NCBI RefSeq assembly: GCF_001677475.2
Contig: NZ_CP015229.1
Length of the DNA stretch: 64,000 nucleotides
From: Escherichia coli
GTDB taxonomy: Bacteria; Pseudomonadota; Gammaproteobacteria; Enterobacterales; Enterobacteriaceae
Reading direction: 5' to 3' (one strand)
Shown here: positions 8,695 through 18,346 of the stretch, one piece after another
Layout: every line of letters begins with the position of its first letter
How positions within the stretch are numbered: the first letter of the stretch is position 1
Notes under the pieces: generated by a model
Told to the model about the DNA's origin: nothing
What the model saw: only the letters and a program-made list of their open reading frames with translations
Databases searched by the model: none
Made by a program: the position numbers and the translations under genes

Positions 8695-9244
8695 TGACCA
8701 GTCCCGTCAGGCAAAGCTGGCGTTCTTTTTCACGGCGAATCTTTAAACCTCGCAGGGGCACGCCGTTACTGTTCACGAAATCAGGGAGATGGTTACACAT
8801 ATTCACCCATTCCCCTTTCTGCGCCCACTTGTGGATGGACGTTTCAACTCGCATGCCTCGCGCTTTGCTGTAGTAGGTCCGTAAGCTATTGCATCCCATA
8901 TTGAATGCCGCGCTTGTCATTGCACTGAAGGCATTATCGGGCATGTCTTTGCCCCGGAAGTGCTGATTAATACAGCGTTCAGCGATCAGGATATTCTTTT
9001 CCCAATCAGCGGCGATTTGCTGGTCTGTTTTTCGCACACCCGGCGTTACCCCGTGTGTATTACCGATCCCGTCAGTCCATACCCCCGCCGGGCACATGTA
9101 TGGATCACGTCGGCAACCTTCAGCGTTTCCGATAAGCTCAAGCCCCGCCTGGTTGGTTCGCACATTGCCATTACCCATCACGATGGTAATCATCACCGCG
9201 ATAGCGCAAATTGCACCGCCTCCTGCGGCTGTTTTTCCCTTCAT
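8687..9244 (-). CDS. lyz: SAR endolysin (T4-lysozyme-like muramidase with N-terminal signal-anchor-release segment), 185 aa
   Basis: Track ORF trimmed to internal ATG behind a GAGG RBS; N-terminal Gly/Ala-rich hydrophobic SAR segment (AAGGGAICAIAVMITIVMG) followed by catalytic Glu/Asp/Thr motifs (GNAEGC, RRDPY, WTDGIGNT); length equals P1 Lyz. Confidence 0.85.
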   Translation of the reverse strand: MKGKTAAGGGAICAIAVMITIVMGNGNVRTNQAGLELIGNAEGCRRDPYMCPAGVWTDGIGNTHGVTPGVRKTDQQIAADWEKNILIAERCINQHFRGKDMPDNAFSAMTSAAFNMGCNSLRTYYSKARGMRVETSIHKWAQKGEWVNMCNHLPDFVNSNGVPLRGLKIRREKERQLCLTGLVNE

Positions 9245-9377
9245 AAAGACCTCATAAGCGAATTTTTTACGCTCCAGGACAAACACCCATTCACAGCCAA
9301 TACCGACTGACTCGATCCCTTTAGAAGGTACAGGATAATGCAAATCACTTGTTAGCTACGTTTCAAAGATATACATT

Positions 9378-9394
9378 ATTGCTCTAATTAATTT
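9378..9394 (+). promoter_or_regulatory. P1 C1-repressor operator-like site upstream of ssb
   Basis: ATTGCTCTAATTAATTT matches the recalled C1 operator consensus ATTGCTCTAATAAATTT at 16 of 17 positions. Confidence 0.5.
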
Positions 9395-9413
9395 ATTTTA
9401 TTAGGTAAGATAA

Positions 9414-10046
9414 GTGGCACAACGCGGTGTAAACAAAGTCATCCTGATTGGTACCCTGGGGCAAGACCCGGAGATCAGGTATATACCAAATGGCGGCGCG
9501 GTCGGAAGACTCAGCATCGCAACGAATGAATCATGGCGCGACAAGCAAACGGACCAACAGAAAGAGCAAACAGAATGGCATAAAGTCGTTTTGTTCGGAA
9601 AACTTGCTGAAATTGCGAGTGAGTATTTACGAAAAGGTTCTCAGGTCTACATCGAAGGGAAACTTAAAACCCGTAAGTGGACAGATGACGCCGGTGTAGA
9701 ACGTTACACGACGGAAATTATCGTCAGCCAGGGCGGCACCATGCAAATGATCGGCGCTCGCCGTGACGATTCACAGTCCTCAAATGGCTGGGGGCAATCA
9801 AACCAACCTCAAAACCACCAGCAATACAGTGGTGGCGGTAAACCTCAGAGCAACGCCAATAACGAACCTCCAATGGACTTTGACGACGATATTCAAAAAC
9901 GACTGAAAGAAAAGCGGTGGTCCAGACGCCGACAAAAGCACGAACTCGCTAAAAAACGCCAAAGCTGGCAATGGCACGCGCTTTTCACGAAAAGAACACC
10001 CCGAGGCATTGCTTTCGCTGGTGGGAAAACATTCCTCCCCACCTGA
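9414..10046 (+). CDS. ssb: single-stranded DNA-binding protein with non-canonical C-terminus (basic 50-aa extension after DFDDDI instead of terminal PF)
   Basis: Track ORF; OB-fold region closely resembles E. coli/P1 SSB (VNKVILIG...TEWH...MDFDDDI); reading continues [14 protein letters not shown]... to a stop at 10046. Confidence 0.85.
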
Positions 10047-10083
10047 AGGCGCAATACATCAAATTTTAAGCAGAGAAAAGACT

Positions 10084-10737
10084 ATGAATAAAATGGCAAC
10101 GAAAGAGCTTTTTAAGTTCCTTCCCAAATACAAAGCTCACAAAATCGTTAGTGCATCGAAAATCAAAGATATCGAGATTATCTCATTGATTGATAATACC
10201 CCTGCTTGTGGCTATATCACATTAATGGACCCCCAAGGCGTAACGGTTCGTGTTGATGCAGCGTTTTTGCAAAAACACCGACCAGATACTGGCGGCTATC
10301 TGCTCGGTTATGAGGACGGTTATCTGTCCTATTCACCAGAAAAAACATTTGAAGAAGGCTTTAGTCGGACTAACGACTTCTTCGAAAATGAGGTATCGCT
10401 TAGCATTGAAGGTCACAATGGGGTGACATTCATTACAGCCAGGGACGTAACTATTGCTGCCGGTGGCATCATTACCACACAAGAAGAAATCGACCTTGAA
10501 GCAGCCGACTTCTCTGACGCGCTAATGTGGTTGAAGGAAGGCAAGAAAGTTGCCCGACGCGAGTGGAAAGGCGAAAAGCAATTCTGCTGGTTAGTTCTCG
10601 CTGGAAGCGTCAATTTACACGGCATTCACGTTCCTTATGGTGACCATTTTGTATTGAAAGATGCACAAAATATGGACAGCGTTTGGTTGCCGTCTGTGGA
10701 TGATTTACTGGCATGTGACTGGTTTGTAGTGGAGTGA
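10084..10737 (+). CDS. two-domain protein: unknown N-terminal domain plus C-terminal DUF2829-like (Tad2-family-like) domain
   Basis: Track ORF 10009-10737 trimmed to the ATG in frame; C-terminal motif ALMWLKEGKKVARREWKG ... DWFVVE resembles DUF2829. Confidence 0.55.
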   Translation: MNKMATKELFKFLPKYKAHKIVSASKIKDIEIISLIDNTPACGYITLMDPQGVTVRVDAAFLQKHRPDTGGYLLGYEDGYLSYSPEKTFEEGFSRTNDFFENEVSLSIEGHNGVTFITARDVTIAAGGIITTQEEIDLEAADFSDALMWLKEGKKVARREWKGEKQFCWLVLAGSVNLHGIHVPYGDHFVLKDAQNMDSVWLPSVDDLLACDWFVVE

Positions 10738-10743
10738 TTTAAC

Positions 10744-11526
10744 GTGGAAAATACTAAAGCAATTCAATACCGCCTGCGTAATGGTCAGAGTGTCGAAGTG
10801 ACCATCAATAATGATGGTGTGCCTGGCGAAAAGGTTTCGATCTCTGATCTGGCTATCGAAAAAACCATCATGTGCCACCTTGGCTTTACTGAAGAAGTGA
10901 GCAAAAAGCATGGTGTAGCAATCTGGAGCGCAATGGATACTGGTATGCGCAGATTCATTACTGCTCGTACCCCAGGGATGACCATGATGGACCTCATGCA
11001 GATTGCGCCGCTGTTTGAATGTGAGCCTTTAGATGTATTCAGCAATCCAGCTATCTGCCAGCAGTTATATGGTGAGATGAAACTCGCGGTTACCCCCATT
11101 GTGCTGCATGAAGGATCGCTTGCTGGCGTGTGGAAAGTGGAGCGTATTTCAAGCTACATGCCTTTCCATGTCAACGGCGTAATCACTGGTGAAAATCAAC
11201 CTGTTTCCGTTATAAAGTCAGACCTCAAGCGCGCAATTCTTGAAGCAAGTTGTCGAGTTGTCGGCCTGGGCAAACAGTCTTATGTTTCCTTCCCGGCTGG
11301 CCCTGAAGGCCCGGCAGAAATTCTGATTATGGATGCCGATCTGCTATGGCAAATACAGTTTCTGATTGGCAAAAGCATCATCCGCGCTGAAGAACTCGAT
11401 CAGTACATTACCTGCACGATGACGGATGAAGTCAAAAGTGTGGCTATAGCCAATGCCCGGAACCTATGTCGTGCTGCATTAACAGAACTGCAAGAAAACA
11501 CCACGGAAGAGGTGGAAAGTGATTAA
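10744..11526 (+). CDS. hypothetical protein, 260 aa
   Basis: Track ORF; GTG start behind a GGAG RBS; tightly packed with neighbours. Confidence 0.5.
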   Translation: MENTKAIQYRLRNGQSVEVTINNDGVPGEKVSISDLAIEKTIMCHLGFTEEVSKKHGVAIWSAMDTGMRRFITARTPGMTMMDLMQIAPLFECEPLDVFSNPAICQQLYGEMKLAVTPIVLHEGSLAGVWKVERISSYMPFHVNGVITGENQPVSVIKSDLKRAILEASCRVVGLGKQSYVSFPAGPEGPAEILIMDADLLWQIQFLIGKSIIRAEELDQYITCTMTDEVKSVAIANARNLCRAALTELQENTTEEVESD

Positions 11527-12613
11527 TCGTATACAGAATGAATCTGCCTGGTTAGCACTGATAGAACGGTATAAAGACAATTGGGAACTGGCAGCAAAAG
11601 AGTTGCTTGATATTGAGTTAACACCTCATCAAGCAAAAATTATTAACGCGATAAAGAACACCGGAGCCAAAGTCACTGCCACCACACCACATGGTATTGG
11701 GGAAACCTCTATTGTGGCAGTGATTAGCATCCTGCAAACAATACTGTATTCGTGTTCCCGTACAGTGGTTGTTTCTCCTGCGATTAACGATAGTCGAAAA
11801 ACAATAATTGACTATATGTTCCGTTATTGGGAGCGAGTTACCCAAAAACACCCTTTTCTTGGCAATTATTTCAGAATACACCCTGACAAAGGGTTGGTGC
11901 ATATCAGTGAAACATGGGGATGCGTCTATATAACCTATTGTCTGAATAACGAAGAGTCTCTGGCTGGTTTTACTGGACCGCACGATCTTTTCATCGTTAT
12001 TAACTCGGCGGAAATCAGCGATCGCGCTCATGCAGTGATAACTGGCAATTTAACCAATTATGACTCGCGCCTGCTGTTGCTGTCGAAACCATCGGAACGC
12101 GAGAAAGGGTACTTTTATGATTCGCATCACCGGTTGGCCCATAGTAAAAACAATCCTGCTGGTTTTTTCACGGCGATAACTCTAAACACAGAGGATTCAC
12201 CTCTCGTTTCTGAAGCATATCTTGAATTCAAAGCCAAAGAGTTTGGTGGACGCAATAGCGATGAATATCGCCGATTGATCTTGGGGAAATTCCCCGGGAT
12301 TCGGGAGTTGATGGAAAAGTCATCTGTTCCCCGTAATATGCACTTCACAATGACTGACGGTAGTAAATGGGTAGTGCCTACGATCGTGATCGCCAAACAC
12401 CATGCGAAACATCACGCTCAAAAACACAACTCCAGCACATTAGACTGGCTGAAGGCCTATACAATACCGTTATTCTCGGCAAACCATAACGCTATAACTG
12501 AATGGGCTAAACAAATCCCCTGGCAGGATGTGGCTGAAGAGGCGTTTGTCGAAAAACCACCAAGAGATTTGCACGAGCACTGTTGGCTGACATCAGAAAA
12601 AAGCTTCTCGTGA
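11519..12613 (+). CDS. hypothetical protein with terminase-large-subunit-ATPase-like region and non-canonical P-loop (GIGETS)
   Basis: Track ORF; local pattern LTPHQ ... TTPHGIGETS ... DLFIVINSAE ... ITGN parallels the Q-motif/Walker A/Walker B/motif III spacing of large terminases, but the Walker A lysine is replaced by Glu. Confidence 0.45.
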   Translation: MINRIQNESAWLALIERYKDNWELAAKELLDIELTPHQAKIINAIKNTGAKVTATTPHGIGETSIVAVISILQTILYSCSRTVVVSPAINDSRKTIIDYMFRYWERVTQKHPFLGNYFRIHPDKGLVHISETWGCVYITYCLNNEESLAGFTGPHDLFIVINSAEISDRAHAVITGNLTNYDSRLLLLSKPSEREKGYFYDSHHRLAHSKNNPAGFFTAITLNTEDSPLVSEAYLEFKAKEFGGRNSDEYRRLILGKFPGIRELMEKSSVPRNMHFTMTDGSKWVVPTIVIAKHHAKHHAQKHNSSTLDWLKAYTIPLFSANHNAITEWAKQIPWQDVAEEAFVEKPPRDLHEHCWLTSEKSFS

Positions 12614-12616
12614 GGT

Positions 12617-12643
12617 AAAAATCCCGCCGATTGGCGGGATTTC
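12617..12643. terminator. bidirectional intrinsic terminator between the accessory module and the dar operon end
   Basis: Hairpin ATCCCGCC-GATT-GGCGGGAT with flanking A and T runs. Confidence 0.6.
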
Positions 12644-12644
12644 T

Positions 12645-12953
12645 TCAATATACGATCTGGTCTACATGATCACCAAAATCATCGTCGTCGTCCTCATCGC
12701 CACCATCTACTGCTGGCCAATCAACAAACCAGCCAGCGTAAAGATGCAGCGTTCGGAGAACATCACTTGCGGGAGCATCAAGGGTGTTAACGAATCCCAT
12801 ATAGCTATTGGGATTTGCTCCAGCTATGGCTTCAGCGATCATGTCCTCGGTAATGTCACCGGAGATAATGCTTAAACGCCCGGAAACTTCTTCATTATCA
12901 TCAAATTCGATAATGGCATCTCCACCTAATGGCGCTGCGATTTTAATCTGCAT
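12645..12953 (-). CDS. small highly acidic protein (C-terminal DGGDEDDDDDFGDHVDQIVY), last gene of the dar operon
   Basis: Track ORF; overlaps the ddrB-like stop by 11 nt; function unknown. Confidence 0.5.
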   Translation of the reverse strand: MQIKIAAPLGGDAIIEFDDNEEVSGRLSIISGDITEDMIAEAIAGANPNSYMGFVNTLDAPASDVLRTLHLYAGWFVDWPAVDGGDEDDDDDFGDHVDQIVY

Positions 12954-13724
12954 TATTTAGCTCCTTTGCCACACCTAATAACAGTTCCAGCAATCCGTCA
13001 CCATTCATCAGTGATGCGGCAGCGGCCTCTTTGTCATGATACAACTGAAGAGCCATAGAGAATACTTCCGTTGCTGACGTTTTGGAAATAGTCGGTGATT
13101 TCTGCCGAATTTTCCCGGTGTTACTTACTGAGGCTGGCGGGTATACCTTCGCCATATAAATATTACTCAATCGAGATCTGAAGCACCATTCAGGCTTGCC
13201 ACGCCCACCGATATTGACGAAAGATGGCTTATCCCCTTCAACATTGGCCTTCAGGAATGACCGGGCTTTCTCTAACAAACCAGGGTTACTGTACTCAAGA
13301 TGATGACCCAGCTCGTGCCACAGTGCACTTGCATTTTCATCGTTCAAATTGACAGCAACAACACCATTTAGATTTGCATATGCCCTTCCCTGGTGGTGAA
13401 CTACCTTTGATAAGGTCGATATTTTCCCGCCGGTCAGGCGATAAATATCAGCAAGTTCCTTGCGCAGGTCTATCCCACCATTCTGTCCAGCGCGGGCTTC
13501 TTCCACTTCTTCTGTGATAAAAGAGTCGGCCCACTCAAGAGCTTTTTCTTCAGATACGGATGAGTTTGCGATCGCACTGTTCATGGCAGATAACACTTTC
13601 TCGTGGACCGAACCCATACTTCGCTGATTCATTTGCCAGCGTGTCTGCGGGTTATATGAGAATCGCTTAAGTAGTTGGTCAAGCTGCTCAAGTTCTTCTT
13701 CACTGACATACTTTTTAGCCTCAC
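12943..13724 (-). pseudogene. ddrB: 3' fragment of IS-interrupted ddrB-like gene (carries HELGHH zincin-like motif)
   Basis: Reading across the IS target duplication rejoins this frame to the upstream fragment (...PGIIGE|AKKYVSEEELEQL...). Confidence 0.6.
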
Positions 13725-13789
13725 TATTAGACGTCAACTAGTTTTGCCGACTCGCGCCAACTATACTGGCCGCACCCTTCAGGGCGACA

Positions 13790-14545
13790 TCAAGTCGCGC
13801 TTGTTACTGCCTTCGCTGTCTTTTTCCTGTAGCTTTCCCCTTTCAGTTCGAACATATATCCGTGATGGATCAGCCTGTCTGCCGCAGCCACCGCCATAGT
13901 CTCATCCACGAAGATGCTGCCCCACATGCTGAACGGATGGTTACTGGTTATCACCAGGCTCCCACGTTCATAGCGATGCGCTATTAACTCGAACAGCACA
14001 CCCGTTTCGGCACTATCGCGTTTGACATAGCCAAGATCATCCACCACTATCACCCGGTAGCGATCCAGTTTCAGTAGCAGCTCATTCAGTTTCAACTGAG
14101 CTCTGGCTTTACGTAGTTCCTGCAACAGCTCTCCTGCGCTGTAGAACCGGGCCCGGTAGCCCTGACCTACTACGCCATCCACGATCGCTGCCGCCAGATG
14201 GCTTTTCCCCAACCCGCTGGCTCCGAACAGCAGAACGTTTTCTCCTGCATCAACCCAGTCTGTCGTTTCACAGAGTTGCCGGAACTGAGCTCCATTCAGT
14301 TCCGGCACCTGACTGAAGTCGTATTCGCTCAGCGTTTTGGCAACTGGCAACCGGGCCTCCTTTTTATAACGACGCAGTTTTTCACTCTCGCGCCACAGGA
14401 GTTCTTCATTGCATAGCGTCAGAAGATAGCGCGATGGTGTCCAGCCTTCTGCCAGCGCTCGTTTTTCCAGAGCGTGCCATTCAGCTCCAACTCGTGTCAG
14501 GCGTAGTTTACGCAGGCTATGTTCAAGGTGATGGATATTGCTCAC
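13790..14545 (-). CDS. istB: IS21-family helper ATPase IstB
   Basis: Walker A GASGLGKSH, Walker B VIVVDDLGY, ITSNHPFSMW motif typical of IstB/DnaC-like AAA+ proteins. Confidence 0.9.
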   Translation of the reverse strand: MSNIHHLEHSLRKLRLTRVGAEWHALEKRALAEGWTPSRYLLTLCNEELLWRESEKLRRYKKEARLPVAKTLSEYDFSQVPELNGAQFRQLCETTDWVDAGENVLLFGASGLGKSHLAAAIVDGVVGQGYRARFYSAGELLQELRKARAQLKLNELLLKLDRYRVIVVDDLGYVKRDSAETGVLFELIAHRYERGSLVITSNHPFSMWGSIFVDETMAVAAADRLIHHGYMFELKGESYRKKTAKAVTSAT

Positions 14546-16041
14546 TGCGAACCTCCCTTGCCACGCAGTAGTTGCTCATAACTGCTCAGGTTATGCTGTA
14601 TCACATTGACTACCGGCAACGCCTTTTCTTTTATACCCAGGAAGCGCATCAGCCGGTGCAGATCCACGTTTCCCGGGGTATTCAGCATCTGCTCCATACC
14701 TTTTGCCACGACTGAGATATCGTCGTATCCTGCAGCCAGTTTCAGGGCATGTACCATCAGCCTTCCTGCCATATCGGGCTCCAGATGATTACATAAGCGA
14801 CGCCACAGCCTCCGCCATTCATCGTCCGGCAGGATGTCATTTCTCAGCGTTGCATGGCAGAACGCACCGGGCTTTTTTGCCAGACTGTCGATCACATGTC
14901 GGAAGTCGATACGACGGGCCCGCGTCTTCCCTTTTTCTGGTCTGACGCGAGGGCAGCTCATGACCTCGCTGCTGCCAACGTAACAGCTCAGACGATCGTC
15001 CCATAACCTGACCCGTAACAGTTGACCTACAAGCCGGGAAGGTACGCTGTAGACGACGTGCTTCACATTGATGGTACTGCTGCGACTAACCCTCACAGTC
15101 AGCTCATCATAGTCAGCACTGCGACGAAGCGGCAGCGGTTTCAGATGAAGACGTTCTTCCTTGACCAGATCCTGATTGTTACGGTTGTGCCGCATAACCT
15201 GCTGAGTGATGAAGGCCTGATATTCTTCTATGGTGCTGAAGTCGTTACTGCCCCGCAGTATCAGCGCCTGACAGATACGCCTTTTCAGATGTCCGTGGGC
15301 ACTTTCAACCGAGCCATTTTCGTGGCCCCGACCGGCATTATTGTGTACGCCCTGCATTCCGTAGTGCTGACAGAGAGTAGCATAACGCTCAGTCAGCTCG
15401 CGGCGTCCATCTTCGCCCTGTTGTTTCCATGCTGCCCTCAGGCTGTCCGTTTTATGTTCTACCGGCACTCCGCCCAGTTGTCCGAGGGCTTCCTGCAGGC
15501 CTTCAGCCAGAGCAGAGAAGCTCTCACCACCCAGAACAACCCGCATCCAGCTCCAGTGGCTCCATTCCAGACGGAAGTGATACAACTTATGCGCCAACAA
15601 CTTACCGGCGATGGTGACAACTACACCTTTCAGTTCAGTAAAGTCCGACAGGCCTCGCAGGCCGGGCTGATGTTGCTGGCGGAACATGACCTCCTGCTCT
15701 GTACCATACTGTAGTTTCCATTCGCGAACCCGCCGTTGCATTGTTCTTCGAAGGCTGTTGGGGTACTGGCCGGGATATTTATCCTGTAGCATCTCCAGTA
15801 GAGTTGTTGGTGTCAGAGCCGGCCTCTCTTTCAACAGAGGAACAAGCATGCTGTCCCACACAGCTTCCAGAGGATCTTTGCGTGTGCGCCAGTGCCGAAC
15901 ACTGTTTTTTGCCCACTCTCCTTTTTCGATCCGACGACCAGAACGGACTGAGATACCAGCCTTCATGGCCGAGATATGCTGAGTTATACCTTTCTTACGC
16001 TGAGTCATATAGTAACTGACCTGAGAAGTATTGAGCGTCAC
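14542..16041 (-). CDS. istA: IS21-family transposase IstA (true start may be an internal ATG)
   Basis: N-terminal HTH pattern like IS21 IstA, overlaps istB start in the typical istA-istB arrangement. Confidence 0.8.
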   Translation of the reverse strand: MTLNTSQVSYYMTQRKKGITQHISAMKAGISVRSGRRIEKGEWAKNSVRHWRTRKDPLEAVWDSMLVPLLKERPALTPTTLLEMLQDKYPGQYPNSLRRTMQRRVREWKLQYGTEQEVMFRQQHQPGLRGLSDFTELKGVVVTIAGKLLAHKLYHFRLEWSHWSWMRVVLGGESFSALAEGLQEALGQLGGVPVEHKTDSLRAAWKQQGEDGRRELTERYATLCQHYGMQGVHNNAGRGHENGSVESAHGHLKRRICQALILRGSNDFSTIEEYQAFITQQVMRHNRNNQDLVKEERLHLKPLPLRRSADYDELTVRVSRSSTINVKHVVYSVPSRLVGQLLRVRLWDDRLSCYVGSSEVMSCPRVRPEKGKTRARRIDFRHVIDSLAKKPGAFCHATLRNDILPDDEWRRLWRRLCNHLEPDMAGRLMVHALKLAAGYDDISVVAKGMEQMLNTPGNVDLHRLMRFLGIKEKALPVVNVIQHNLSSYEQLLRGKGGSQ

Positions 16042-16129
16042 GCCATTTCCTGTTGGATCATGTAAATGACACTCAGGTTACAAAACCGGCCAGAATAATC
16101 GGCGCCAGGCGGACTGAGTTATTGTCGTC

Positions 16130-18346
16130 TCATACCTCACCAATAATGCCAGGGAGAATATTGCCGTTAGGATTAAACGCTCGCGAAAGGAAGAGTTTCA
16201 GCGCCCCCATGCCCTCCGATGCTTCAATATCACCAATAACCCGGTTAACAATGGCCGCACTCTTCGGATTAGCATCCGCCAACGCTCTGGCTACAATTTG
16301 CAGGGACGATACGACCTCACGCTGCATATCCGTCCTGATCTCATCAATAAACTCTGGCGTTATGCCGTGCTCTTTAAGAATATCCCTGCCTTCCGCCGTT
16401 ACCCCATCGATATCACCGACATGTTTATTAACCCGACTTTGCAATGCCTTAAATGCCTTCAGAATTCCACGGGAATCATCCGCTTTACTAACGGCCTTCC
16501 TGAATGCTGGCAAGAAGTCTGAGTTAACCTCATTTTGTTGATCGGCCCACTGAATGGAGGCTTCTTTCATCTCGTCCAGAGTCAGATCACCCAACGCGGT
16601 ATGGTCTGTGAATATGAGCGACAACCTCTGAACCATTTCTGCCAATGGTGATGCCGAATGCGCCGCGCTAAGGAATGCTTTCACCCTGGTTGGGCGAATG
16701 GAAAACCAGTCAATAGCTGGTGGCATATCTCCGTTTTGTATCGCCTGCGCTATCTCATCAAAGCCGTCGCGCCCAAGGGAGGATGCGTGATTTAACAATC
16801 CGCGAAGTAACGAATTGCTGATACCGAATAATCGGCACCATTTATTCACGTCGGCAACAGGCATTCGAACAAAATGCGCAAGCACTTGTACAAGCTGTTC
16901 ATCCTGGGGATCTGTACGGGAAAGCAGCCTGATCAGATGAATAATGTCTTTGATGCCGGATGCCCGATGTAATAGCAAGCTGGTATATGGAGCAACACCG
17001 TTGTAACTACCGCCGGAAACGGACTCGAAAAGACCGCCGGATATCCCTTGCATGCCTTCGTTTTCCAGTTCCTGAGACACCTGGCGAAGGATATCCTGTA
17101 ACGACACATCGCCGCCGCCAAACATATCCCCCAGCGCCTGGCCCTGGTGCTGTAACTCATCATTGATACGTTGAGCCATCAACTTAAAGGCGGTGGCCAT
17201 ACGCTTCGCGCTACGGTTATTCGCGACGATGAACAACGCGAGTGCTTTCACTTCCGGGGCCGTTTCGCTGAACATATCCCCCTGAGCAATAACATCGGTA
17301 ATATGCTGGCCTGACTCCTTCGATTGCCTTACCAGGTCTACCGCATCTTTCAATGCCGCCAGCGCCTTTTTATCGAGGCTATCCGCTGTCTCAATGCCAT
17401 CAACAATAGTTGTCACAGCCTGCTTGTGCGCTTCTCCTGATAAAGCCTGCATCTGGACAAAATCATTGGCTGCCGCATTAAGCGCCGTCAGAACATTACG
17501 CATATCCGGATCAGGTTCTTCTGCAACCATCCTTACCAGGCGCGCATCCTTATATGCCTTGGCAAAGATCGCGTTTTGTATACGGTCAACAAGTTGCCGC
17601 GTTGGTCGCCCATCTTCCGTTACAAGGCCAGCAGCCTGTGTGGCACCAACTTGCGTCATGAATCCGCGAATAAACGCGTCATTACTGCGGCTAAGCAGAT
17701 CTCCGCTTTCTGACGGATTAAACAGCGCCATCATCGCCGGTGTTATGCTGTCGGCATCAACAAAAGCCTTTTCACTGGCTGCCATTTCCTGAAGATCAGA
17801 AATATTTGAGTCCTTGGCAAACTGAACGCGGTCAACCTTAGTTAACCGGCGGCGCACCAATACAGGAGCCGTCATTGATTCAACCTTTTCAGGTCGTATG
17901 CCGAATTCGGTCGCATGTTCAATCAGGTACTCACGATACCGATCCGCATTGCCGTCCTGATAGGCTTTAATGATTCCCATGGTCCGTCCATTACCTGACT
18001 CAACGGCATTGTCCTCACCAATTATCGGCGCGCCATGGCTGGATAAACCGGAATCGGTAAGCTGAGCAGGCCGCAAATCTTTGGATATCTGGTTAACCTG
18101 AAGAAGGCTGGATGCGCGGGTCCGGTCGCGCGGCTGAAGTTCCTGGGGATAGTCAGGATTAATTTTCCCATCCAGAGTATTGGATACCAAAAGAGCTGAG
18201 GCATCGACGATATCAAACGCTGTTTTTACCTCGTCTCCCTTCGCTGTCACCACATACGAAACCCGCCCATAATCGGGCAGGTTCTTAAGCAGCTCGATCA
18301 GCGTTTCTATGCTGGTGGCAATTACCACCTGATCGCTTAAGCTCAT
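16130..18346 (-). pseudogene. ddrB: 5' fragment of IS-interrupted ddrB-like gene; 738-codon ORF ending with an IS-encoded Val-stop
   Basis: ORF runs from the dar operon into the IS terminus and stops 2 codons inside; position after darA-ddrA matches P1. Confidence 0.6.

Follow-up and report, generated by a model that had tools for sequence, protein, structure and literature searches.

The window analysed here comprises 64,000 nucleotides of Escherichia coli contig NZ_CP015229.1 (assembly GCF_001677475.2), taken from a P1-like phage-plasmid, and carries a module of three open reading frames (ORFs) between ssb and the Dar antirestriction genes. The third frame, ORF3, is a maintained paralogue of the ATPase domain of PacB, the terminase large subunit (TerL) of phage P1; it is predicted to be catalytically dead, hence not a working terminase, and it is coupled to the second frame, the P1 gene isaA. 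This pair of IsaA and dead PacB is the part of the module most likely to represent undescribed biology, and no description of it was found in the literature searched. The locus and the Tad2 call for the first frame, ORF1, were already known; what is new, as far as our searches show, is the finding that ORF3 is a conserved, dead paralogue of PacB and is coupled to IsaA. Taken jointly, the three genes may form an early, C1-repressed counter-defence operon in which ORF1 would be a nucleotide sponge and ORF3, with IsaA, a mimic of the terminase fold. We give this reading a probability of roughly 0.4. The three frames lie within 10084-12613:

10084-10737, + strand: ORF1, start codon ATG, 217 residues
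10744-11526, + strand: ORF2, which is IsaA, start codon GTG, 260 residues
11519-12613, + strand: ORF3, start codon GTG (ATG in other alleles), 364 residues

The initial annotation had described three co-oriented, tightly packed frames, and this description holds: 6 nt separate ORF1 from ORF2, whereas ORF2 and ORF3 have 8 nt in common (GTGATTAA). The good ribosome-binding sites that it reported are seen for ORF2 and ORF3, which have Shine-Dalgarno-like GGAG/GAGG motifs 7-10 nt before their starts, whereas the motif upstream of ORF1 is weaker. All three genes are real, since they recur in hundreds of plasmids. NCBIfam gave no match for any of the three products. The remark that no recognised P1 function fits these proteins has to be revised: ORF2 is P1 IsaA (P1_gp017; 95% identity over 260 residues, same position after ssb), and ORF3 comes from P1 PacB. 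Nor are all three proteins unknown, as Tad2 has already been reported in P1 and D6 phage-plasmids (10.1101/2025.09.12.675607).

Residues 11-272 of ORF3 align with the ATPase domain of P1 PacB at 35% identity (E 5e-52), and identity to the PacB of a D6-like element is 36%, whereas all TerLs other than PacB are at most 28% identical. A tblastn search of phages with ORF3 placed the PacB proteins of P1, P7, D6, SJ46, RCS47 and JK004 on top, with E values of 1e-45 to 1e-48 for those of P1, P7, D6, SJ46 and JK004. Word-indexed searches returned a cluster at 97% identity, a metagenomic protein at 53% and, after these, only genuine terminases of about 470 residues. ORF3 also matches phrog_2 (E 3.6e-9). 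No Pfam match was found for ORF3 or its tail, and a sequence search of the PDB with either ORF3 or PacB gave nothing. A neighbour-joining tree joins the ORF3 and PacB clades as sisters in 200 of 200 bootstraps. The records that bear ORF3 also encode pacB (two places per record in 813R1 and MH422554); within the window, no pacB is present. Two records, MH422554.1 and MH445380.1, label the ORF3 orthologue as terminase large subunit, which is misleading as the real PacB is encoded elsewhere in the same genomes. The present assignment corrects this database label.

The motifs of ORF3 were compared in an alignment of 73 sequences including 70 TerLs. Both Walker motifs are degenerate:

11684-11707, + strand: degenerate Walker A motif, ORF3 residues 56-63, TPHGIGET (SGHGTGKS in PacB)
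11987-12013, + strand: degenerate Walker B motif, ORF3 residues 157-165, LFIVINSAE (LYIIDEASG in PacB)

The Walker A lysine, present in 100% of the 70 TerLs, is E62 in ORF3 and an arginine in the D6-like orthologue, and the string PHGIGETS occurs in 26 of the 26 P1-like ORF3 alleles examined. The Walker B aspartate (93% of TerLs) and glutamate (100%) are I161 and N162. A pairwise alignment of ORF3 with PacB agrees on the loss of both motifs. The arginine finger is I138, the NPT coupling motif reads KPS, and an RNase H-like nuclease domain is absent, the protein ending about 100 residues after the ATPase domain. The D6-like orthologue is degenerate at identical sites but with other residues (VD versus IN in Walker B). 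Since neither ATP hydrolysis nor DNA cutting appears possible, ORF3 must act by binding.

The AlphaFold2 (AF2) model of ORF3 has a predicted local distance difference test score (pLDDT) above 90 for residues 1-260, and its best Foldseek matches in the PDB are TerLs, namely Sf6 gp2 (4e-9), P74-26, HK97 and T4 gp17. Orthologues of ORF3 from the P1 and D6 lineages are 49-53% identical, and those of PacB are 56-59% identical. As the two proteins are about equally diverged, the comparison points to a duplication that predates the split of P1 and D6. The ratio of nonsynonymous to synonymous substitution rates (dN/dS, computed throughout against diverged alleles) is 0.25-0.34 for ORF3, and 118 of the 119 plasmid copies are full-length. 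The C-terminal part of the protein forms a separate domain, unrelated to the nuclease domain that PacB has at this place:

12302-12610, + strand: ORF3 tail domain, residues 262-364, with the motif KHHAKHHAQKH; matches positions 407-496 of phrog_17928 (E 7e-15)

This tail of about 95 residues is a mobile uncharacterised domain with invariant Trp, Pro and Ala positions, and it has no relative in Pfam or the PDB. One homologue is a stand-alone protein of 98 residues, gene_35 of Cronobacter phage JK004, which is encoded beside a DnaB-like helicase. Another is the C-terminus of a 471-residue protein of Xanthomonas phages (e.g. Tenjo), located in a module with a recombinase, an exonuclease and a single-stranded DNA-binding protein (SSB). 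We also considered the tail as a shrunken nuclease domain, with D280 placed on the catalytic Asp by MAFFT, and rejected this because it is an independent domain, found alone in JK004 and fused elsewhere in the Xanthomonas phages.

IsaA matches phrog_2326 (E 1.5e-149). It has no Pfam match, and no PDB match with either the single sequence or a 16-sequence profile. Its AF2 model is confident (pLDDT 87, predicted template-modelling score 0.83), and no informative structural neighbour of this model was found. At a dN/dS of 0.08-0.13, purifying selection on isaA is strong. Only 30 relatives came out of an exhaustive HMMER search through 1.84 billion representative proteins. Those of known context belong to P1- or D6-like elements, where they have a C1 repressor, a Cre-like recombinase and a dUTPase nearby but do not lie beside terminases. 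A role of IsaA as a PacA-like partner of ORF3, in the manner of a pair of small and large terminase subunits, was rejected: IsaA has no similarity to PacA, and its homologues elsewhere do not lie beside TerL genes. In P1, isaA and isaB were both non-essential in a CRISPR interference screen (PMC10695390). The IsaA annotation of P1 (NC_005856, 320 residues) begins about 57-60 codons upstream of the RefSeq start used elsewhere (260-264 residues) and spans the spacer between ssb and isaA; the ORF was probably called too long.

Every one of the 119 PLSDB carriers of ORF3 has an intact isaA-ORF3 junction, and in the other isaA plasmids the match ends exactly at the isaA stop codon. In IMG/VR, 12 D6-like loci have an IsaA-like gene (43-48% identity) followed by an overlapping ORF3-like gene (51-53%), and a thirteenth lies on a truncated contig. 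The ORF3 tail is at least as conserved in these loci as the ATPase part. An ORF1-like gene usually lies upstream of the pair, and the whole module stands downstream of a Cre-like recombinase and a dUTPase, not of ssb. Another D6-like state has no ORF1, the dUTPase being followed directly by IsaA and ORF3. Because synteny is kept in the D6-like loci, IsaA and ORF3 appear to be an old unit to which ORF1 is an optional, fast-evolving add-on.

ORF1, to judge by its sequence matches, is a new fusion variant of the already known Tad2 kind:

10507-10731, + strand: Tad2-like (DUF2829) domain of ORF1, residues 142-216, Pfam PF11195

The DUF2829/Tad2-like fusion proposed in the initial annotation is well founded, the domain matching PF11195 with an independent E value of 6.1e-18 over model positions 2-73 of 73. 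A PDB search with ORF1 returned ModTad2 (9eib, E 8e-11), 8v3e (E 1e-10) and SPO1 gp34.65 (8sme, E 5e-6). The N-terminal region, residues 1-135, corresponds to phrog_11049; its PHROG matches are all of unknown function, and the PDB sequence search gave no match for it. The ligand contacts of SPO1 Tad2 are W25, N26, W73, S76, T78 and D79 (10.1101/2023.05.01.538930). Four of them, W25, W73, S76 and D79, are conserved in ORF1 as W161, W201, S204 and D207, and two are changed, N26 to K162 (N in sister alleles) and T78 to D206.

ORF1 is far more variable than its neighbours. Its alleles are only 59-70% identical across loci that otherwise share 94-99% identity and whose IsaA and ORF3 are 92-99.7% identical to those of the window, its dN/dS is 0.41-0.53, and the nearest full-length allele among PLSDB and complete E. 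coli genomes is about 90% identical in nucleotides. Alleles differ by an indel in the loop after β2 of the Tad2 domain, which is shorter here than in sister alleles, and in a variable patch at residues 33-50. In ModTad2, the corresponding loop region gives rise to an additional pocket (10.1101/2024.01.03.573942). The Tad2 domain of the window is 96% identical to one from D6-like loci, where the N-terminal region is only 60% identical, and some D6-like elements have a 146-residue form that keeps the first 20 residues, a β-rich linker and the Tad2 domain and lacks the N-terminal core. Because of this split in identity and the existence of the short form, the two halves of ORF1 seem to have been shuffled independently.

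Tad2 proteins are proven sponges for 3'cADPR, His-ADPR, N7-cADPR, cGAMP and cUMP (PMC12393519, 10.1101/2024.01.03.573942), and the family inhibits Thoeris types I, II and IV, CBASS and Pycsar (PMC12393519). A DefenseFinder survey found Tad2 in 56% of P1 and 93% of D6 phage-plasmids (10.1101/2025.09.12.675607). An anti-defence role is reasonable for ORF1. Its DUF2829 domain might instead serve another purpose, as an AcrIIA7-type anti-CRISPR or in a structural or regulatory role through the N-terminal domain. AcrIIA7 is indeed among the PDB matches, weakly (E 0.007-0.013), phrog_643 ('transcriptional regulator') matches residues 150-217 (E 4e-6), and the architecture of ORF1 is atypical, with K162 in place of N26. 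We regard such a role as unlikely, because the strongest matches of ORF1 are experimentally proven sponges, the W/W/S/D ligand clamp is conserved, and the authors of the Tad2 work reinterpret DUF2829 proteins as signal sponges, not anti-CRISPRs (10.1101/2023.05.01.538930).

Expression of the module appears to depend on sites at its two ends:

9378-9394, + strand: C1 repressor operator Ossb (Op21), ATTGCTCTAATTAATTT, identical to the operator annotated in P1 and overlapping the ssb promoters
12617-12645, both strands: bidirectional intrinsic-terminator-like hairpin, separating ORF3 from the convergent hxr

Expression of ssb and the three ORFs is likely to be controlled at Ossb. On the + strand, no second C1 operator or late promoter was found in 9300-12700, and no terminator-like site was reported in 9900-12600; nor does a late-promoter -22 box paired with a -10 element stand in front of the module. 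The bidirectional terminator proposed in the initial annotation is a reasonable description of the hairpin, which has a G+C-rich stem of 10-12 bp followed by a U-rich tract on either strand. Its folding energies are -20.9 kcal/mol (+ strand, z -4.5) and -20.3 kcal/mol (- strand, z -4.8), and 0 of 200 shuffled sequences were as good. Given the conserved Ossb and the lack of an intervening terminator, second operator or late promoter, the simplest reading is probably a single early, C1-repressed transcript that runs from ssb to the hairpin.

A counter-defence role is favoured because the operon would be early, the Dar genes are adjacent and the neighbour of the pair is Tad2-like. The operon would be made together with ssb early after infection or induction and be silent in the lysogen. 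ORF1 would then sequester an immune nucleotide of the kind with which Thoeris, CBASS or Pycsar signals. Among Tad2 homologues, the ligand differs where the pocket differs, and allelic change in the pocket-forming loop of ORF1 could tune which signal is bound. ORF3, acting with IsaA, would be a non-activating mimic of the terminase ATPase fold directed against the host sensors Avs1-3 and Upx. Terminase ATPase domains trigger Avs2 and Upx, and for the small TerL-ATPase-like phage proteins T4 vs.8 and Ksap1/2 an anti-defence role is suspected by the authors of that work (10.64898/2026.04.30.721860). A more specific version, in which IsaA and ORF3 form a two-protein decoy device, made early and occupying or misleading Avs1-3 or Upx before the late PacB appears, is in our view improbable as it stands. 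If true, such a device would be the first protein-decoy countermeasure against bacterial pattern-recognition immunity, and work on standard laboratory P1 would have overlooked it, as IS1 and isaB take the place of ORF3 there.

Several points weigh against a counter-defence role. It is suggested by homology for ORF1 and by context for IsaA and ORF3, and the early transcription is taken from the annotation of P1. ORF1 has 217 residues with an N-terminal region of about 135, whereas the characterised Tad2 proteins are homotetramers of about 90 residues, and a ligand-contact residue, N26, is replaced by K162 in the window allele. The AF2 model of ORF3 was built on a TerL-rich alignment, and its fold match is not independent of homology. 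A terminase-fold protein could itself trigger Avs2 or Upx, as T4 vs.8 does. Conversely, recognition by EcAvs2 uses terminase-bound ATP, which ORF3 probably cannot bind, so that it may be invisible to this sensor. Finally, IsaA occurs without ORF3 in about two thirds of the isaA-bearing plasmids and so has a role of its own.

The interval was matched by megablast in 538 PLSDB plasmids and 19 phage records, and 580 of 5426 complete E. coli genomes (~11%) match the locus. Among the PLSDB plasmids, 335 have isaA DNA, 227 ORF1-like DNA and 119 ORF3, and only 19 have ORF1, isaA and ORF3 together (query coverage of at least 80%). ORF3 is absent from reference P1, P7 and SJ46. Alternative arrangements include ssb-ORF1-isaA-hxr in SJ46 and ssb-isaA-ORF3-hxr in vB_EcoM-813R1. 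The window is collinear with reference P1 at 9301-10087 and 10748-11527 (ssb and isaA) and again from 12647 (hxr-ddrB). At the position of ORF3, reference P1 has 94 nt, IS1 and isaB. ORF1 is a 661-nt insert placed precisely after the isaA ATG, where 813R1 has 7 nt, and with this insertion the window isaA begins at GTG. P1 IsaB, an orphan family (phrog_30162), was considered as a remnant of ORF3 and rejected, the two proteins sharing no similarity.

The locus (isaA-IS1-isaB) has already been named variable region 2 or RD-2 of P1-like phage-plasmids (PMC9603915, PMC6906374), which agrees with the initial annotation: the module is accessory cargo, lies in a hotspot known to vary, and is missing from reference P1 or different there. 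Its placement in the slot of the P1 IS1 and isa genes is correct for ORF3, which stands where P1 has IS1-isaB, but the interval itself contains isaA. The module has also turned out to be neither a set of well-characterised housekeeping proteins nor conserved in every P1-like genome: IsaA is uncharacterised and non-essential, and ORF3 is not expected to work as a terminase.

Instead of acting against host sensors, IsaA and ORF3 could modulate the phage's own packaging, the non-catalytic PacB-like subunit binding PacA, the portal or PacB and thereby setting when or how specifically pac is cleaved or the motor assembled. In favour of this, the PacB ATPase domain has no closer paralogue than ORF3, an intact pacB is present elsewhere in the same genomes, and ORF3 diverged alongside PacB over the P1 and D6 lineages; that pseudo-subunits regulate oligomeric ATPases is, moreover, a well-established principle. 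This role is nevertheless unlikely, as ORF3 is dispensable, being present in 119 of about 335 isaA-bearing plasmids. Its context is early and C1-controlled with no late promoter, whereas P1 pacA-pacB adjoin lpa and c1 behind the late promoter LPpac. Its tail is shared with proteins of replication modules and not of packaging, and IsaA is unlike PacA.

The same dead subunit could serve in competition or defence, by poisoning the motor or capturing the small terminase subunit of rival phages and satellites. Phage-inducible chromosomal islands (PICIs) and Staphylococcus aureus pathogenicity islands (SaPIs) compete by interfering with terminase components, and ORF3 retains the TerL fold and not its chemistry, both of which count in favour of such a device. 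The variable regions of phage-plasmids also often hold defence genes (10.1101/2025.09.12.675607). Three observations make it quite unlikely. First, PADLOC (PADLOC-DB v2, E <= 0.1) gave no match for ORF1, ORF2 or ORF3; the initial annotation had left anti-defence and defence side by side, and this result speaks against the latter. Second, the C1-repressed promoter proposed here would keep the genes silent in lysogens, where exclusion is needed. Third, the nearest TerL is the phage's own PacB (35%, others <=28%), so its own motor would be the likeliest victim. That ORF3 is a decaying partial pacB duplicate hitch-hiking behind isaA, leaving ORF1 as the only functional cargo, is very unlikely. In its favour, all catalytic motifs are lost, and differently per lineage (E62 versus R, IN versus VD), and the gene can be dispensed with, IS1 having taken its place in P1. 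Against it, ORF3 is intact in 118 of 119 plasmids at the dN/dS given above, has gained a conserved extra domain, and keeps its architecture, start overlap and tail (52% identity) across a P1/D6 split as deep as that of PacB.

The neighbourhood of the module is as initially described, with ssb upstream and hxr-ddrB downstream, except that ddrB is split by an IS21-family element:

9414-10046, + strand: ssb, presumed to open the operon; 99% identity to P1 Ssb over 150 residues; aberrant 3' end
12645-12953, - strand: hxr, last gene of the convergent dar operon and boundary of the module, 98-100% identical to Hxr of P1 and P1-like elements
13790-14545, - strand: IstB, NCBIfam score above cutoff
14542-16041, - strand: IstA, NCBIfam score above cutoff

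Relative to P1 and five other P1-like loci, ssb has a 15-bp deletion at 9894/9895 (CGTTTTGAATGTGTA) that removes the final Pro-Phe codons and the stop. The conserved acidic tip of Ssb, DDDIPF, is thereby changed to DDDI followed by a 51-residue read-through, giving 210 residues where 162 are normal. Bacterial SSBs dock their partners at this acidic tip. Over the stretch 9880-10046, no match in PLSDB or among complete E. coli records exceeds 90% identity. The deletion may have made the Ssb of the window defective, or it may stem from a fault of the assembly. The IS21-family element lies in ddrB of the Dar antirestriction operon (13725-16134), with an apparent 6-bp target duplication, and because of this insertion DdrB is split in the window element. 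P1 homology resumes at 16135, past the IS21-family element. The G+C content of the module is 43-48% (10000-12700), versus 49-55% in the flanking head, lysis and IS21 sequences. No Rfam matches, meaningful repeats or cassette boundaries were found in 9000-13800.

P1-like phage-plasmids are present in about 11% of complete E. coli genomes and carry resistance and virulence genes, and aids to their establishment in new hosts are of practical interest. The natural alleles of ORF1, which differ by indels in the loop and by exchange of the N-terminal domain, could reveal how ligand specificity shifts. In IsaA and the dead PacB, a phage would be keeping a non-catalytic copy of the protein by which bacterial sensors most often detect phage. 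Either outcome would be informative, whether the pair proves to deceive terminase sensors or to regulate packaging.

Compared with known systems, ORF1 resembles Tad2 in that residues 142-216 cover the whole Pfam domain and the solved structures, with the W/W/S/D clamp kept. It also lies in a phage accessory region and shows the strong allele variation expected of an arms-race gene. ORF3 resembles P1 PacB in its predicted TerL-like fold and keeps the Q-motif, the FYDSHH motif and the LG.FP motif at the domain end; it differs in being away from pacA, in an early and not a late operon, and dispensable. Among the best 40 of the 55 records matched by tblastn with ORF3 (E <= 1e-3), and in the organism summary of that search, there are no T4-like phages. 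Like T4 vs.8 and Ksap1/Ksap2, ORF3 is a stand-alone, lineage-restricted accessory protein resembling the TerL ATPase domain. However, vs.8 retains Walker A and Walker B and activates EcAvs2, whereas ORF3 has lost both motifs. ORF3 further differs from vs.8 and the Ksap proteins in its descent from PacB, its additional C-terminal domain and its coupling to IsaA.

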